IMG/VR virus record: IMGVR_UViG_3300032238_000944
Location: 1 to 64,000 of that record
Length of the DNA stretch: 64,000 bases
Direction: 5' to 3' (one strand)
From: a virus
The notes beneath the pieces are model-generated. The model searched no databases. It was not told the origin of the DNA and saw only the letters and a program-made list of their open reading frames with translations. The position numbers were made by a program, and so were the translations under genes. Positions 9,174 through 16,051 of the stretch are shown piece after piece (the first letter of the stretch is position 1; every line of letters begins with the position of its first letter).

Positions 9174-9336
9174 ACTTTGGTACTGTGAAGGAATGAAACA
9201 ATGGAGATGGACATTGACAGACTCCTCACGTCCTATTCGTAAACAAGAATCTGGACAAAGACCATTTCTTCGTGATGCGATGAATGATGTTGCAAATACT
9301 GTTGAATATATGTTGGAAACAAAACAAAACGAATGA
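9163..9336 (+). CDS. Hypothetical protein (MNIKLWYC..MKQWRWTL)
   Basis: ATG 9163 preferred over GTG 9106; coupled to the next gene. Confidence 0.65.
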   Translation: MNIKLWYCEGMKQWRWTLTDSSRPIRKQESGQRPFLRDAMNDVANTVEYMLETKQNE

Positions 9337-9986
9337 GTAAAAGTTCCTACTTTATAGATAAAGTAAAGAAGTGTGAAGTAAAAGATTTACTCAACACTTT
9401 TCATTATCTTAAAGATGAATCTAAAGATTTTAAAGTAAGTCCTTACTCATATGGTCTCTACAGAAACACTGTTACAGATATTCTGCACGTTGGCGGTTGT
9501 CTTGGTGTTTGCATCTTTACTAAAATCCCAGTCCCCGAAATAGCAGTAGGTGCATTTGGATTACAAAGACATGAGCAAGAAGGACTTTATGAACTTTCAA
9601 GACTTTGTATTCATCCAAATGTTCAAAAAGAAGAATATAATATTACAAGTTGGTTTGTAAGTCGCTGCATTAAGAGGTTTAGAAAAGATGCAAAGGTTCG
9701 TGCTATTCTTAGTTATGCTGACTCTAATTACCACACTGGAGTTATATACAGAGCTTGTAATTTTAAGTACTACGGTCTAAGTGACCCAAAAAAAGATTTC
9801 TATTATACTGATGGCACAAAACATTCAAGAGGTAGTATTCGTGGCATTGATGGTGAGTGGCGTGATCGCAGCCGTAAACATCGCTATCTTATGGTATTCG
9901 ACAAAACGCTGAATGTCTTGTGGAAAGAAGAAAAATATGGTATAATAGACAAGTGTGAAGGAAGTGCAAATGGGGAGATTGCTTAG
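9333..9986 (+). CDS. Mom-family (GNAT-fold) DNA-modification protein
   Basis: FHYL, YELSRLC, SWFVSR, ILSYADS...HTGVIYRACNF.YYG motifs of phage Mu Mom-like proteins. Confidence 0.75.
   Translation: MSKSSYFIDKVKKCEVKDLLNTFHYLKDESKDFKVSPYSYGLYRNTVTDILHVGGCLGVCIFTKIPVPEIAVGAFGLQRHEQEGLYELSRLCIHPNVQKEEYNITSWFVSRCIKRFRKDAKVRAILSYADSNYHTGVIYRACNFKYYGLSDPKKDFYYTDGTKHSRGSIRGIDGEWRDRSRKHRYLMVFDKTLNVLWKEEKYGIIDKCEGSANGEIA
9918..9946 (+). promoter_or_regulatory. Sigma70-type promoter inside the 3' end of the Mom-like gene
   Basis: TTGTGG 9918-9923, 17-nt spacer, extended -10 TGG-TATAAT 9941-9946. Confidence 0.6.
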
Positions 9987-10002
9987 GCAGTCTCCCTTTT
10001 TT
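9953..10002 (+). ncRNA. Candidate ~50-nt small RNA
   Basis: Bounded by the promoter at 9918-9946 and the terminator at 9973-10002; 5' end GTGTGAAGGAAGT. Confidence 0.5.
9973..10002 (+). terminator. Rho-independent terminator
   Basis: GGGAGATTGC-TTAG-GCAGTCTCCC followed by TTTTTT. Confidence 0.9.
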
Positions 10003-10008
10003 CGTTTG

Positions 10009-10015
10009 ATAAATA
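10009..10015 (+). promoter_or_regulatory. T4-type late promoter (ATAAATA); further copies at 17238, 19208, 22474, 38438, 38734, 39400, 48189, 62572
   Basis: (T)ATAAATA 17-40 nt upstream of structural gene starts, matching the T4 gp55 late promoter TATAAATA. Confidence 0.8.
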
Positions 10016-10045
10016 ACTTATAACGGAAACTATAGATTTAATAAG

Positions 10046-13000
10046 ATGGGTCTCTCACGTCTAGATAATTTTCTGAAATCAGTTCGTGGCACAATTCTCT
10101 ACGTTGATCCAAGCAGTCTGGATGCAACAGATAGTATTGAAAATCAAGGAAATTCGCTAACCCGTCCATTTAAAACGATTCAGAGAGCCCTTGTAGAAGC
10201 AGCAAGATTTTCATATCAAAGAGGTCTTGATAATGATAGATTTGCTAAGACCACAATTCTTTTATATCCTGGAGAGCACTTTATTGATAATAGACCTGGA
10301 TGGATTCCTGATGGAGCATCCAATTTTAGAATGAGGGATGGAAGCACTACAAATGATTTTCCTCAATGGTCAATTACATCAAATTTTGACATAACTTCAA
10401 CAAATAATGCTCTTTATAAAATGAATAGTATTCACGGGGGTGTTATCATTCCTCGTGGTACTTCGATCGTTGGTATGGATCTTCGTAAAACAAAGATTCG
10501 TCCTCTTTATGTTCCAGCACCAGAAAATAACAATATTGAACGTTCATCAGTTTTCAAAGTAACTGGTGCTTGTTACTTATGGCAATTTACGATTCTTGAT
10601 GCAGATCCTAATGGTATTTGCTACAAGGATTATACAACCAACACTTTTGTTCCTAATTTTTCACATCATAAACTCAGTGGATTTGAATATGCTGATGGTG
10701 TAAATAATGTTAAAATTGATGATACATTCCAGACTTGGGAAACGGCTCGTACCGATCTGGATATGTATTATGAAAAAGTTGAACTTGCATATGGTTCAAC
10801 AAGTGGCAGACCAATTGAACCCGATTATCCTTCCGCAAGTGAAGATCTTCAACCAATTATTGATGAATATCGGATTGTTGGATCTCGTGGCGCGGCAGTA
10901 GGAATTACTAGTATTCGTTCTGGTAATGGTATTACTGGAAATACTACAATTACAGTTACATTTGAACAATCATTTGAAAATCAATTGAGTGTTGATACAC
11001 CAATTCAAATTCAAGGTATTCAAGCAGCAGGATATGATGGGCAATATGTTGTAAGTGCTGTTAATAGTACGACAGAAATTCAGTATAAAGTTCAAAACGT
11101 TCCTACAAATCTTCTTCCGCCAACTACTGGTGCTACATTAAACATTGCAGTTGATACAGTTACTTCAGCATCGCCATATATCTTTAACATATCCTTGCGT
11201 TCTGTTTATGGTATGTGTGGTATGCTTGCTGATGGCAGCAAGGCCGATGGATTTAAATCAATGGTTGTTGCTCAATACACGGGTATTTGGCTTCAAAAAG
11301 ATGATAATGCATTTGTAAAATATGATTCTACTTCAGGAACATATAGAGATTCTACAGCAATCACCAATCTTCATAGTGATTCAAGAGCAAGATTTAAACC
11401 AACTTATGAAAATTTCCATATTAAAGCAATTAATAATTCATATGTACAGTTAGTTTCTGTTTTTGCAATTGGTTATGCTCAACATTTTGCAGTTGAATCT
11501 GGTGGAGATTTTTCGATCAATAATTCCAATTCAAACTTTGGTTCAAAAGCATTAACTGCAACTGGATTTAGAAGCACAGCATTCCCAAGAGATGATATTG
11601 GATATATTACTCACGTTATTGGACCAAAAGAAATTGAGACCGAAGAAGTTAGCGTCAACTTTGGTGCAATTGATATTACAAATACAGTAGGCATTGCATC
11701 TACAACAAGACTTTATTTGTATGGGGAAACTGATGTAAATTCTTCCCCAAGTAGTGTGATTGATGGATATAGAATTGGTGCAAAAGTTAATGATACATTA
11801 TATGTTGAGCTTTCTAATTCTGGAGTAACAACAACATATTCGGCACGTATTGTAATGCCGAATACTCAATATTCATCTGAAAAAATTATTCCTGTTGGTA
11901 GATCTGTTTCAGGAATTAATAGCATTGCTTCAAATATCTTTACTTTAACTGGCACACATTCATTCTTAAATGGCGAATCAATTCGTGTAATTGCCGATAA
12001 TGCTCACCTTCCCGATGGCCTTGAAACAAATCAAATTTATTATGCAATTACGAATACTACATCGGTAGGTCTTGGAAGTGATCAAATTAAAGTTGCACAA
12101 ACTTTAAATGATGCGATCAATGATAATGAATTGGATGTTAATTCAAAAGGTGGAGTTTTAAAAATTGTTTCCAGAGTTTCTGATAAAAATTCTGGAGATA
12201 TTGGCTATCCAATTCAATGGGATAGTACACAATCTCAATGGTATATTGGTGTTGCCACGGATAATGGAATTTATCCTGTCTTAAATACTGCATCCTATGG
12301 GACTGCAACTCCAAGAACATATTTAACCAGAACTCCAGACAATAGAGGAGTTGTTGATACATCATATCGTGTTCGTTATGTAATTCCAAAAGATGCTACA
12401 ACTCTTGCAAGACCACCTTTGGATGGTTATATTCTTCAAGAGTCTAATGATGTGATTGGTGCAGGAACCACTGAAATTCAAAAATATTTCAATCCAACTG
12501 GAGCAACTCTGTCAAACTCTACAGAGTTAAGAAACTTTAGATTTATTTCTGGTGCAGAATGGGCATCGGGAACTGCAAAAGTTTCTACAGAACTCCCACA
12601 CGATTTATCTGTTGGTGCTGAAGTTGAAATTATTAATGTTCTCAGCACAAATAACCTTACGGGTATTGCAAATTCTGCATATAATGGTACTCATACAATT
12701 ACTGGTATCAGTAGTGCAAAACAATTTAGTTTTGCTTTAACAAATAATCCAGGAACATTCTCAAATGATACTACTGCTAGAACCGGTAGTCTTCCATATT
12801 TTAGAAGAAAAAGATTGGCTTCTACCTATCAAGTTTATAGAAGTCAAGAAGTTCAACCATATATTCAAGGTGCTCAAGATGGTATCTATCATTTAATTCT
12901 AATTAATTCATCAAATTCTCCAACTGTTGCACCTTTTACAGATTTAAAATTCTTACAACCAGTACAAAATCTTTATCCTCAAACAAATAGAGATAATCCA

Positions 13001-16000
13001 AACTCAGATCCAGTTTCAACAAAAACTTTTGCAGTTGCAGAACCAATTGGACGTGTTGTAATCAATGACCCACAAAATAGTCTTACAAGAGAAACTATTG
13101 AGAAAAATTTATTTGACTTCAATGTCGGCGTTGGTTTAACAAACATTATTTCTTCTGGAGTCAGTACTCATACATTATATTCTGCAATTGATCATGGACT
13201 TTGTGGTATCACATCCGTTAGCATTGCAAATGCAGGTGCTGGTTATTCTTCAGGTATATATTATGGTGCTCGCCTCATCAATCCAGTTGGCGGAGCAACA
13301 ACAAGTGGAAAAAATGCCACAGCAAGAGTAACCGTAAGTGCTGGTGGAACTATCACAAATGTCACCATTATGGATGGTGGTAGCGCATATGGAGTTGGAA
13401 CTACATTATCAATTGCTGGTATTACAACTGTTTCTGGATATTCACCTTCAGTATTGACAATTACAAATATTTACAATAACGTTGGTGATTGTATCAGTAT
13501 TTCTGGAGTTTCTTCTAATTCATATCAACCATATAATAATCTTTATAAGATTACCTCCGTAACTTCACCAACTCAAATTGAAGTTCAATCTTCAGAGACA
13601 ATTTCTCCTCTTGGGCCATCAATTGCAGGTATCGGTTCCACATTAACAGCAAATGCAACTGCAATTCTGACTGGAAAAGCACTTTCTGTTACTCTCTTAA
13701 CTTATGATTATTCATCTGGAATTGGTACTCTGACATTCCCAACTGCTCACGGATTTAGAGTTAATCAAAAACTTCGTATTGGCGGTGCTGATCAATCATT
13801 CTTTAATGATGATTTCATTGTCAAAACTATTAACAGTTCAACATCTCTTGCAGTAGCAATTGGTGCATCTACAGCAGGAATTAATACAGGCGGTACAATG
13901 ACTGCCTATCGTCCATTCTTGTCATCTTATGGCGGAGATTTGACTAGAGATAATGAAAATACTTCTGGACGTTTAATTGCACCATATGCAGGTATTACAA
14001 CTACCTTAGGAACAAACTTTGCTTCCACTGCATCAGATGTTGATCCAATCGTCATTCCAAATGCAGATATTTTGGGATTGAAGATTGGTGATTACCTGCA
14101 GATTGATGATGAAATTGTCAGAATCAGAACAAATGTGTCTGGAAGTACCGTTTATGTCTTCCGTTCATTATTTGGAACTCAAAGACAAAATCACCAGTCA
14201 GGCACTGCAGTCAGAAAAATTAAGCCTCAACCAATTGAATTCCGTAGAAATTCAATCATTCGTGCATCGGGACATACCTTTGAATATCTTGGATATGGAC
14301 CTGGTAACTATTCCACTGCATTCCCAGAAAGACAAGACCGTATTCTGACCGCACAAGAAGTACTTCTTGCACAATCAGTAAAACTTGACGGTGGTGTCAG
14401 TATTTACACTGGAATGGATGATAAAGGTAACTTCTACACAGGTAATAAGAAGTTAAATTCTGCTACTGGACAAGAAGAAGTCTATGATGCTCCAATTCCT
14501 ACCACAACAGGTGAAGATCCTGGAACTGGTGGTGTAAATGTTGGATTTGATGTTCTTTCTCCACTTGAAGTTTCTGTAAATCGTTCTCTTCGTGTTGAAG
14601 GTGGTCAAGATAACAATCTTATTTCTCAATTTGATGGTCCTGTTGTTTTCAATAACAAAGTTACAACAAATTCAGAAAAAGGTATTGAAGCAAAATCATT
14701 ATTTGTTCAGGGTAATGCTGATGTATCGCGTAAATTTACAGTTGGCGTTGGATCAACTCCAACATCTTCTGGAAACCCAGGAGACATTATTACTAGAGCA
14801 TTCCCAGAACATAACAAATATCTTGGTTGGATTTATACATTAGATAATTATTGGGAACCATTTGGATTTATTGGAACTCTTCCAAATGGCCTTGTCTTTG
14901 GTGCAGCAAATCAAGTTCTGTATAAAAACCCACTGGGACAAAATGCAGGTAACAATGATTTCTTATTCCAAAATAATTCTACATTAATCATTGGTATTGG
15001 CGCATCAACCAATGTTGCCAATCAAAAACTACAAGTTGGTGGTGGTGCATATCTAAATGGATTTGTTGGTATTGCATCTTCGGCACCTTCAGCAGCTCTT
15101 GACGTTGTTGGAAATGCAAGAATAAGTGGTATTGTTACCATTGGTACAGCATCAGTTACTATCAATGGCAATACTAATACTATTACTGCTGGCATCACAT
15201 CCATTAAATCTGGAATTATTACCGCAACATCAGGAATTGTTACTTATTATGGTGATGGACAATATCTTCAAAATATTGATACTTCAAGTTGGGCAAATGT
15301 TCCTGTTGGACTCGGAACTGGAATTTATTCTAAGTCATTGCTTCGTGTTGGAATCGGAACTATCCTCCCTCAAAGTCAATTAGATGTTGTCAGTGGACTT
15401 TCAACAAGTGTTGATGCAAAACTTGCAAGGTTCTCAGCACCAGATCTTGGGATTGGCTCAGTTACAAGCATTGCATTCGGAAAACAGTTTTCAAATTTCC
15501 AATCATCACTCTTTGCATATAATTATTTTGGAAGTTCTGCATCTAGTGGTTCCTTCCTTTCCATTAGTCATTCAGGACAAGGCAATACTCTTGTAGTTGC
15601 TGATAGTGATCGTGTTGGTGTGGGAATCGCAAATCCACAAGCAAAACTTCATGTTTCTGGAGATGGAAGATTTGATAGCAATGTGGTGATTAGCGGTGCT
15701 CTAAGTGTAAATAGCAATGTGGTGATTAGCGGTGCTCTAAATGTAACTGGTGATATTACAGCATTCTATACTTCTGACCAAAGACTGAAAGATAACATCA
15801 CTCCAATTCCAAATGCATTAGATAAAGTACTTTCAATTAGTGGTAATACATTTGATTGGAACGAAAAATCTGGCAAAGAAGGAACTGATGTTGGTGTTGT
15901 TGCACAAGAAATTCTGGAAGTTCTTCCAGAAGCAGTTACCACAAGAGATAATGGATATCTTGCTGTTCGTTATGAAAAACTTGTACCACTTCTGATTGAA

Positions 16001-16051
16001 GCAATTAAAGAACTTAAACAAGAAGTAAAAGAACTTAAAGGAGAAAACTAA
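10046..16051 (+). CDS. Large tail-fibre / virion protein with C-terminal intramolecular chaperone (peptidase S74)
   Basis: 2001 aa; ILYVDP...GNSLTRPFKTIQRAL N-terminus, VGIG repeats, C-terminal SDQRLKDNI...GVVAQE...L.PLLIEAIKEL. Confidence 0.85.
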   Translation: MGLSRLDNFLKSVRGTILYVDPSSLDATDSIENQGNSLTRPFKTIQRALVEAARFSYQRGLDNDRFAKTTILLYPGEHFIDNRPGWIPDGASNFRMRDGSTTNDFPQWSITSNFDITSTNNALYKMNSIHGGVIIPRGTSIVGMDLRKTKIRPLYVPAPENNNIERSSVFKVTGACYLWQFTILDADPNGICYKDYTTNTFVPNFSHHKLSGFEYADGVNNVKIDDTFQTWETARTDLDMYYEKVELAYGSTSGRPIEPDYPSASEDLQPIIDEYRIVGSRGAAVGITSIRSGNGITGNTTITVTFEQSFENQLSVDTPIQIQGIQAAGYDGQYVVSAVNSTTEIQYKVQNVPTNLLPPTTGATLNIAVDTVTSASPYIFNISLRSVYGMCGMLADGSKADGFKSMVVAQYTGIWLQKDDNAFVKYDSTSGTYRDSTAITNLHSDSRARFKPTYENFHIKAINNSYVQLVSVFAIGYAQHFAVESGGDFSINNSNSNFGSKALTATGFRSTAFPRDDIGYITHVIGPKEIETEEVSVNFGAIDITNTVGIASTTRLYLYGETDVNSSPSSVIDGYRIGAKVNDTLYVELSNSGVTTTYSARIVMPNTQYSSEKIIPVGRSVSGINSIASNIFTLTGTHSFLNGESIRVIADNAHLPDGLETNQIYYAITNTTSVGLGSDQIKVAQTLNDAINDNELDVNSKGGVLKIVSRVSDKNSGDIGYPIQWDSTQSQWYIGVATDNGIYPVLNTASYGTATPRTYLTRTPDNRGVVDTSYRVRYVIPKDATTLARPPLDGYILQESNDVIGAGTTEIQKYFNPTGATLSNSTELRNFRFISGAEWASGTAKVSTELPHDLSVGAEVEIINVLSTNNLTGIANSAYNGTHTITGISSAKQFSFALTNNPGTFSNDTTARTGSLPYFRRKRLASTYQVYRSQEVQPYIQGAQDGIYHLILINSSNSPTVAPFTDLKFLQPVQNLYPQTNRDNPNSDPVSTKTFAVAEPIGRVVINDPQNSLTRETIEKNLFDFNVGVGLTNIISSGVSTHTLYSAIDHGLCGITSVSIANAGAGYSSGIYYGARLINPVGGATTSGKNATARVTVSAGGTITNVTIMDGGSAYGVGTTLSIAGITTVSGYSPSVLTITNIYNNVGDCISISGVSSNSYQPYNNLYKITSVTSPTQIEVQSSETISPLGPSIAGIGSTLTANATAILTGKALSVTLLTYDYSSGIGTLTFPTAHGFRVNQKLRIGGADQSFFNDDFIVKTINSSTSLAVAIGASTAGINTGGTMTAYRPFLSSYGGDLTRDNENTSGRLIAPYAGITTTLGTNFASTASDVDPIVIPNADILGLKIGDYLQIDDEIVRIRTNVSGSTVYVFRSLFGTQRQNHQSGTAVRKIKPQPIEFRRNSIIRASGHTFEYLGYGPGNYSTAFPERQDRILTAQEVLLAQSVKLDGGVSIYTGMDDKGNFYTGNKKLNSATGQEEVYDAPIPTTTGEDPGTGGVNVGFDVLSPLEVSVNRSLRVEGGQDNNLISQFDGPVVFNNKVTTNSEKGIEAKSLFVQGNADVSRKFTVGVGSTPTSSGNPGDIITRAFPEHNKYLGWIYTLDNYWEPFGFIGTLPNGLVFGAANQVLYKNPLGQNAGNNDFLFQNNSTLIIGIGASTNVANQKLQVGGGAYLNGFVGIASSAPSAALDVVGNARISGIVTIGTASVTINGNTNTITAGITSIKSGIITATSGIVTYYGDGQYLQNIDTSSWANVPVGLGTGIYSKSLLRVGIGTILPQSQLDVVSGLSTSVDAKLARFSAPDLGIGSVTSIAFGKQFSNFQSSLFAYNYFGSSASSGSFLSISHSGQGNTLVVADSDRVGVGIANPQAKLHVSGDGRFDSNVVISGALSVNSNVVISGALNVTGDITAFYTSDQRLKDNITPIPNALDKVLSISGNTFDWNEKSGKEGTDVGVVAQEILEVLPEAVTTRDNGYLAVRYEKLVPLLIEAIKELKQEVKELKGEN
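15675..15746 (+). repeat. 36-bp in-frame tandem duplication
   Basis: atagcaatgtggtgattagcggtgctctaa(g/a)tgtaa x2, one mismatch; encodes SNVVISGAL(S/N)V x2. Confidence 0.95.

Follow-up and report, generated by a model that had tools for sequence, protein, structure and literature searches.

Trans-acting small RNAs (sRNAs) of the RybB and OmrA/B type carry a 5′-terminal seed and an intrinsic terminator and, as is the case for most known sRNAs, they act on mRNAs. The prophage-encoded anti-sRNAs AgvB and AsxR of enterohaemorrhagic E. coli and the tRNA-spacer sponge 3′ETS-leuZ bind Hfq-dependent regulatory sRNAs, and cyanobacterial Hfq is not known to be an RNA matchmaker. Among cyanobacterial sRNAs, both the conserved motif of Yfr1 and the fact that it pairs with the 5′ end of Yfr2 have been described (PMC2190773, PMC2518516, PMC6778093). 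Here we analyzed a stretch of 64,000 nucleotides of viral DNA (IMG/VR virus record IMGVR_UViG_3300032238_000944, positions 1 to 64,000; hereafter the window), which very probably encodes a stand-alone small-RNA gene with a conserved single-stranded 5′ seed. The best-supported reading of our results, to which we assign a probability of roughly 0.55, is that the product would be an anti-tRNA small RNA of ~50 nt acting on the host's tRNA-Val(CAC), with the consequence for host translation that is proposed below.

The predicted RNA is similar to RybB and OmrA/B in having its own promoter, an invariant unpaired 5′ seed and a freely varying terminator hairpin; it is, however, shorter, and the targets of RybB and OmrA/B are mRNAs. 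Its architecture is that of an ordinary 5′-seed sRNA, while the target class would be new. With AgvB, AsxR and 3′ETS-leuZ it would share the principle of a short RNA, derived from a phage or a tRNA locus, which neutralizes a non-coding RNA by base pairing, and the likeness to 3′ETS-leuZ extends to those cyanophages in which the element is the 5′ leader of a tRNA transcript. In contrast to these systems, the partner of the phage RNA would be a mature tRNA needed for decoding. Yfr2 (Rfam RF01701, Cyano-1) is likewise a short RNA with a conserved, single-stranded, G/U/A-rich 5′ end beginning GUGUGA (PMC2518516, PMC6778093), and the partner of each RNA is a small non-coding RNA rather than an mRNA (for the phage RNA, a predicted one). 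Nevertheless, Yfr2 is ~90 nt long and possesses a conserved first stem-loop and the motif GUGUGAGGAGUG, whereas the phage RNA is 35-51 nt long, has two extra A residues and finds its perfect partner in a tRNA. The RF01701 model, which does find the host copies, gave no match in the window at its gathering score and none up to E = 10 within 9850-10060. Neither in the window nor in six related loci did any other Rfam family reach its gathering score, and up to E = 10 there was only noise.

Recognition of a specific tRNA by an RNA through the anticodon loop is known from the T-box specifier and from the A-rich loop of HIV-1 with tRNA-Lys3 (PMC4919913, PMC1084362). In those cases only 3-7 bases of the loop are paired, the stem remains undisturbed and the tRNA serves as a signal or a primer; in contrast, the phage RNA, with 14-21 nt of complementarity, would open the stem, and it has neither an antiterminator alternative nor a primer-binding site. 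A T-box leader, in which a specifier loop is combined with an antiterminator and a terminator that exclude each other and sense the 3′ end of the tRNA, was considered and rejected, given a bare seed with one hairpin, no alternative fold and no Rfam T-box match. In phage-host conflict, attacks on tRNA by proteins are established, as with the anticodon nucleases PrrC and PARIS AriB and the effectors of retron Ec78 (PMC12409363, 10.1101/2025.05.10.653283), and tRNA supply is a resistance factor for Syn9 (PMC11726456). In those systems, as in the one proposed here, a single tRNA species is attacked and the difference in codon usage between phage and host decides who suffers; there, however, the host attacks with proteins, whereas here the phage would attack with an RNA. 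According to the S-CREM1 paper, the known non-coding RNAs of cyanophages are CfrI, PhotoRC-II, wcaG, manA, glnA and abiF, none of which is this element, and a literature search with the sequence itself and on the topics of phage sRNAs and tRNA returned only primers and unrelated papers. The element is apparently a widespread and undescribed RNA gene.

The predicted unit lies on the plus strand of the window. A -35-like hexamer, TTGTGG (9918-9923), agrees with the consensus at three of six positions and aligns with the canonical TTGACA of the Synechococcus phages Bellamy and S-SM2. A 17-nt spacer separates it from the TATAAT of a perfect extended -10 box, TGgTATAAT (9938-9946). Our promoter consensus scan did not list this promoter because the -35 hexamer matches at three positions only. 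The 5′ seed GUGUGAAGGAAGUGC occupies 9953-9967, where GTGTGAAGGAAGTGC was located, and its 15 nt are perfectly antisense to positions 23-37 of the host's tRNA-Val(CAC). It is followed by a terminator hairpin (9972-9997; 11 pairs, six of them G-C, and a loop of 4) and by the T-run TTTTTT of an intrinsic terminator (9997-10002). From the promoter spacing and the terminator, a small RNA of ~51 nt (9953-10003) is predicted, the 5′ end of which would be at, or up to 4 nt upstream of, GUGUGAAGG. In the predicted fold of this RNA the first 15 nt are unpaired and the hairpin has a free energy of -19.9 kcal/mol. An earlier note on this DNA had described a sigma70 promoter with a TG extension (TTGTGG-17-TATAAT), a strong terminator close to it, a resulting RNA of ~50 nt starting at ~9953 and an unpaired 5′ segment. 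All of these parts were found in place. At the sequence level, then, a putative promoter of its own at a fixed distance and a terminator are both present.

The same unit recurs in many cyanophages. An exact search of IMG/VR with the 14-mer at 9953-9966 matched at least 119 contigs; ~90 of the 119 matches listed have a promoter before the seed and, 0-6 nt after it, a GC-rich hairpin, and the others are scattered inside open reading frames (ORFs), which is what chance would give for a 14-mer in a collection of this size. The 14-mer is invariant in every copy found. It is present exactly, and once per genome, in nine of the ten Synechococcus myophages tested. Whole-genome scans allowing up to two mismatches found a single exact copy in the window's genome, Bellamy, S-SM2 and two complete uncultivated virus genomes of 207-213 kb, and likewise in S-RIM2, S-SSM5, S-CAM8, SynMITS9220M01, Syn9, S-SM1 and Syn19. 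By these scans and by BLAST with the whole tRNA, none of six Prochlorococcus phages (P-SSM2, P-SSM4, P-HM1, P-HM2, P-RSM4 and P-SSM7) carries the element, and in P-SSM4 and P-RSM4 the capsid gene leads directly into a terminator with no seed between. Matches with one mismatch in P-HM1 and P-HM2, and with two in the remaining phages, were rejected as chance, since they lie inside ORFs and have no promoter or hairpin.

The element occupies at least four different genomic sites across the phages. It precedes the tail-fibre gene in the window, Bellamy and S-SM2, and in other phages it either stands right behind the major capsid gene or follows a small ORF that separates the capsid gene from gp3. 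Relatives of the freshwater phage S-SRM01 have it inside tRNA arrays, and there its hairpin has no T-run and is immediately followed by a tRNA-Gly gene; for these reasons we regard it in these phages as a tRNA leader. Among 79 non-redundant elements, a -10 hexamer matching at five or more of six positions ends 3-10 nt before the seed in 54, and a T4-late TAAATA box is found 4-9 nt before it in a further 13. With sigma70-type and late-type promoters alike, the seed begins within a few nucleotides of the predicted transcription start. The hairpins, being of unequal length, could not be aligned (MAFFT and RNAalifold), and 46 terminator-type copies were folded one by one. These copies have 43 distinct hairpin 5′ arms, the median energy of their hairpins is -15.6 kcal/mol and the predicted RNAs are 35-51 nt long (median 43); in 39 copies the predicted fold leaves every base of the seed unpaired. 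The earlier note had proposed a search of T4-like cyanophage genomes for the motif between a -10 box and a terminator, and it is in this setting that the 14-mer recurs, with a variable hairpin. As a sequence pattern, the unit of promoter, 14-mer and variable hairpin recurs far beyond chance.

Two variants of the unit were seen on IMG/VR contigs. In some of the tRNA-leader copies (L027, L048, L069, L077, L087, L093, L103 and L104) the hairpin contains an insert of ~40 nt, CCGUGCCUGUGAAGGGAAACCUGAGGCUGGGUAAAUCC, which holds a second seed-like stretch, UGUGAAGGGAA; this insert matched no Rfam family. On another contig (L024, near 14149), the seed comes straight after the 3′ end of a tRNA gene and before a Shine-Dalgarno sequence and an ATG. 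Since the seed adjoins the tRNA gene, the 5′ end of this RNA would come from tRNA processing and not from a promoter.

When cellular genomes were scanned with the seed, most matches were due to chance, and the one recurring context was the reverse complement of a single tRNA gene, present in Synechococcus, Cyanobium, other cyanobacteria and a few other phyla. ARAGORN identified this gene as tRNA-Val(CAC). The 14-mer pairs with positions 24-37 of the tRNA (linear numbering), namely the last base of the D stem, position 25, CUUCC, which is the 5′ strand of the anticodon stem, and UUCACAC, which comprises all seven bases of the loop. The part of the tRNA mirrored by the window seed accordingly runs from the end of the D stem through that strand to the end of the anticodon loop. 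BLAST with the whole tRNA, which is independent of the 14-mer pattern, showed antisense identity of 14-21 nt in each element-bearing phage. It spans positions 22-37 in Bellamy and S-SM2, 24-40 in Syn9, 24-41 in S-SSM5, 24-42 in S-SM1 and Syn19, and 23-43 in SynMITS9220M01, and is thus extended on different sides in different lineages. In the 79 non-redundant elements the perfect antisense stretch is 14-19 nt long, most commonly 16. By our arithmetic, the chance that a given 14-mer matches any of the ~3,150 tRNA positions of a host on either strand is ~2e-5.

In five complete host genomes, tRNA-Val(CAC) is the only perfect complement of the seed, and near-matches are no more common than for a reversed control pattern, with the exception of tRNA-Val(GAC), which has two mismatches. 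A phage tRNA-Val(UAC), read on the contig of L027 that carries the element in a tRNA array, is not complementary to the seed. The mismatches of Val(GAC) and the lack of complementarity of this one phage Val(UAC) suggest that the seed is isoacceptor-specific. When the window, apart from the tRNA genes of the phage itself, was compared with 42 host tRNAs, the longest matches after that of the seed were 12-13 nt, lay inside ORFs and were at chance level. The duplex of seed and tRNA-Val(CAC) has a predicted energy of -28 kcal/mol, and when the complete RNA and the complete tRNA are cofolded, about -16.5 kcal/mol is gained relative to the folded monomers, in a model that ignores tertiary structure and base modifications.

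The distribution of the tRNA among hosts was also informative. The exact 19-mer of its anticodon arm is present in 184 of 251 genomes of the host family, and its presence follows genome size: 176 of 185 genomes of at least 2.0 Mb have it, compared with 8 of 66 genomes of at most 1.9 Mb, which we take to be Prochlorococcus. One host of the family possesses three valine tRNAs (UAC, GAC and CAC); in eight small genomes, only Val(GAC) and Val(UAC) tRNAs were found. Because tRNA-Val(CAC) is present in Synechococcus-sized genomes and missing from most Prochlorococcus-sized ones, its distribution matches that of the phage element. Codon usage differs as well. In the window, which has a G+C content of 35%, GUG makes up 7% of the valine codons (5.1 per 1000 codons), whereas in five host loci it makes up 37-60% (30-40 per 1000), so that the host's need for GUG is six to eight times that of the phage.

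We therefore observed a conserved unit, a promoter close to the seed, exact complementarity to one tRNA, uniqueness of that complement in host genomes, matching distributions and an asymmetry in codon usage. The proposal of an anti-tRNA RNA further supposes that the RNA is expressed, that it would bind the folded and modified tRNA and that binding would decide the fate of that tRNA. A trans-acting RNA of ~50 nt would be transcribed from its own promoter, and its single-stranded 5′ end would pair with the host's tRNA-Val(CAC), namely with the loop of the anticodon arm and the 5′ strand of its stem. The exposed 7-nt loop would be paired first and the stem next, after which the tRNA would be sequestered, or be made a substrate for a double-strand-specific or RNase E-type nuclease. 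This isoacceptor reads GUG only, a codon which the phage hardly uses and which its GC-rich Synechococcus or Cyanobium host uses for about half of its valines. Given this asymmetry, loss of tRNA-Val(CAC) would be a much greater brake on the translation of host than of phage mRNAs. We can go one step further, although with less than even confidence, and speculate that Synechococcus phages disable the GUG-only tRNA-Val(CAC) by opening its anticodon arm, which would amount to a codon-selective host shut-off. Such a shut-off would mirror, with RNA in place of protein, the anticodon nucleases of the host, and through the seed variants that head phage tRNA operons the loss of a host tRNA would be coupled to the provision of phage tRNAs.

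Several points weigh against this proposal. Mature tRNA is a hard antisense target, being compactly folded, modified and for the most part bound by proteins, and invasion of the anticodon stem is predicted by an energy model that takes no account of tertiary structure or modifications. Our literature search turned up no earlier example of a mature tRNA being targeted by an sRNA from a bacterium or a phage. In addition, GUG can still be read by Val(UAC), and loss of Val(CAC) would slow host translation without stopping it. The element was not found in S-PM2, which is a Synechococcus phage, or in P-RSM4, the host of which has a large genome. The phage sample is small and its members are related, which means that presence and absence in them are not independent observations. 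The copies were retrieved with an exact 14-mer search, which is blind to variants, and the scans with up to two mismatches and the BLAST searches with the whole tRNA covered 19 genomes. Lastly, as a sequence, the seed is also similar to the 5′ motif of Yfr2.

Of the alternatives, the one that survives best is that the RNA is a real sRNA with another partner, either a host or phage mRNA or a protein that recognizes the 14-mer, and that the tRNA match reflects ancestry (a captured antisense piece of the tRNA gene) rather than function. The mRNA targets of most known sRNAs favor this idea, as does the seed's richness in Shine-Dalgarno-like bases. Sites with two mismatches to the seed complement, CACTTCGCTCACAC and CACTTCCTGCTCAC, also recur in several host genomes; each is found at a single position in three genomes (among G035, G074, G179 and G094), presumably within conserved genes, and could be a secondary target. 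However, an mRNA target would vary between hosts, which fits poorly with a seed that is invariant over many phage genera. Near-matches to the seed in host genomes, being no more common than for the reversed control described above, also speak against mRNA targets, and complementary sites are not enriched within the window. As a further candidate partner, the 3′ end of 16S rRNA was rejected, its pairing with the seed being weak (-9.2 kcal/mol). Taken together, these analyses lead us to consider a partner other than the tRNA unlikely, though less so than the explanations that follow.

The earlier note had suggested that the RNA is a decoy of host Yfr1. A decoy of this kind would mimic the 5′ end of the host's Yfr2, titrate Yfr1 and Yfr10, and de-repress their targets. 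There is indeed a likeness, as the 5′ motif of Synechococcus Yfr2, the host's own anti-Yfr1 motif, is GUGUGAGGAGUG (cf. PMC2518516), and the phage seed is this motif with two A residues inserted (PMC2518516, PMC6778093). Cofolding of the phage RNA with real Synechococcus Yfr1 gains -8.8 to -13.5 kcal/mol, which is near the -12.6 to -16.1 kcal/mol gained by host Yfr2 with Yfr1. The 11-nt pairing with two bulged A residues that had been proposed is real (-11.6 kcal/mol), but it is not unusual: the duplex between the Yfr1 motif ACUCCUCACAC and the seed is equalled or bettered by 90 of the 127,970 15-mers of the window and by 4% of shuffled seeds. Moreover, a Yfr1 decoy would place no constraint on the two bulging A residues, yet no copy varies at either of them, and it is through these two residues that the match to tRNA-Val(CAC) becomes perfect. 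The exact Yfr2-type motif GUGUGAGGAGUG, which would serve a decoy perfectly, was found in none of the 19 phage genomes. The bases that flank the seed extend the pairing along tRNA-Val(CAC) and not along Yfr1, which continues CCUCC. Complementarity to Yfr1 was thus found neither to exceed chance nor to be kept by selection. Nor is the element present wherever Yfr1 is, since the six Prochlorococcus phages do not have it even though Yfr1 is present in Prochlorococcus (PMC2518516). On these grounds we consider Yfr1 an improbable target, and this part of the note is not upheld; its proposal of a phage small RNA, on the other hand, is supported.

One observation touches both Yfr1 and the tRNA. The ultraconserved Yfr1 motif, (C)ACUCCUCACAC, equals the anticodon-arm sequence of tRNA-Val(CAC), CACUUCCUUCACAC, minus two U residues (compared at loci L370-L372 for Yfr1, L367-L369 for Yfr2 and L342 for tRNA-Val). 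This may be a coincidence or may point to a connection of Yfr1/Yfr2 with this tRNA.

The promoter-stem-loop shuffling cassettes of T4-type phages are present in many dispersed copies per genome. It is just as improbable as a Yfr1 decoy that there is no RNA gene at all, with the hairpin terminating upstream transcripts and the 14-mer serving as a DNA signal (a protein-binding site, a recombination or attP-like match to the host tRNA gene, or such a cassette): although the unit directly follows the stop codon of the major capsid gene in several phages, where a terminator is expected anyway, and phage attP sites often match tRNA genes, a promoter of one of two classes always stands at a fixed short distance upstream, the copies in tRNA arrays keep the seed though their hairpin has no T-run, the presence of one copy per genome led us to reject a shuffling cassette, and the identity, unlike that of attP cores, lies in the middle of the tRNA and covers only 14-21 nt, in phages that are lytic and T4-like.

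Within the window, the unit overlaps the 3′ end of a Mom-like ORF (9333-9986, plus strand; PF25680, E = 5.7e-19), in which residues 6-192 of 217 match the Pfam family. Its final ~23 codons run through the promoter, the seed and half of the hairpin, and its TAG stop codon (9984-9986) lies inside the loop of the terminator hairpin; these last ~23 residues are probably an accidental tail. At the same site, the Mom gene is absent from Bellamy, S-SM2 and SynMITS9220M01, relative to which the ORF appears as an insertion in the window. It is context for the RNA and no part of its function. A DNA search of a phage collection gave matches only from 9931 onwards, in Bellamy and S-SM2, where a 56-residue ORF ends at this point and the remainder is intergenic. 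Both phages have TTGACA-17-TAATAT, the identical 15-mer, a hairpin of other sequence and the same T-run and late promoter. Promoter function has apparently been kept by different means, since the weak -35 hexamer of the window is offset by its perfect extended -10 box. The possibility raised in the earlier note, that the motif is conserved only as Mom codons, is not borne out: the unit is kept in intergenic DNA by relatives that have no Mom gene, and Mom codons therefore do not account for it.

Two tRNA genes, Leu-UAA and Thr-UGU, are found upstream of the unit. Downstream, a T4-type late-promoter box, GATAAATAA (10008-10016, plus strand), lies 30 nt before the ATG of a tail-fibre gene of 2001 residues (10046-16051), and this box and the leader before the gene are conserved in five phages. 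A 12-nt stretch is present twice in the tail-fibre gene, at 15693-15704 and 15729-15740, 36 nt apart, and matches host tRNA-Asp at chance level; it is probably a repeat in the fibre coding sequence. Public sequencing runs that contain 9600-10400 are mostly labelled as freshwater metagenomes, and the window phage may live in fresh water, as a relative of Bellamy and S-SM2, which are marine.

Nearly all of the Synechococcus myophages examined here, whether from the sea or from fresh water, carry the element, and this group of phages kills a significant fraction of the primary producers of the ocean. With a length of ~45 nt it would be cheap to test, since cultured phage-host pairs exist (Syn9, S-SM2, S-RIM2 and S-SSM5), and a method for engineering cyanophages has been described (PMC8776855). 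If the proposal is true, these phages would, as far as our literature search shows, be the first viruses known to attack a mature host tRNA with an RNA that pairs with it. Current studies of tRNA supply as a factor that determines the host range of cyanophages (PMC11726456) would gain a codon-specific component, and the success of AT-rich cyanophages in competing for translation inside GC-rich hosts would have a new explanation.

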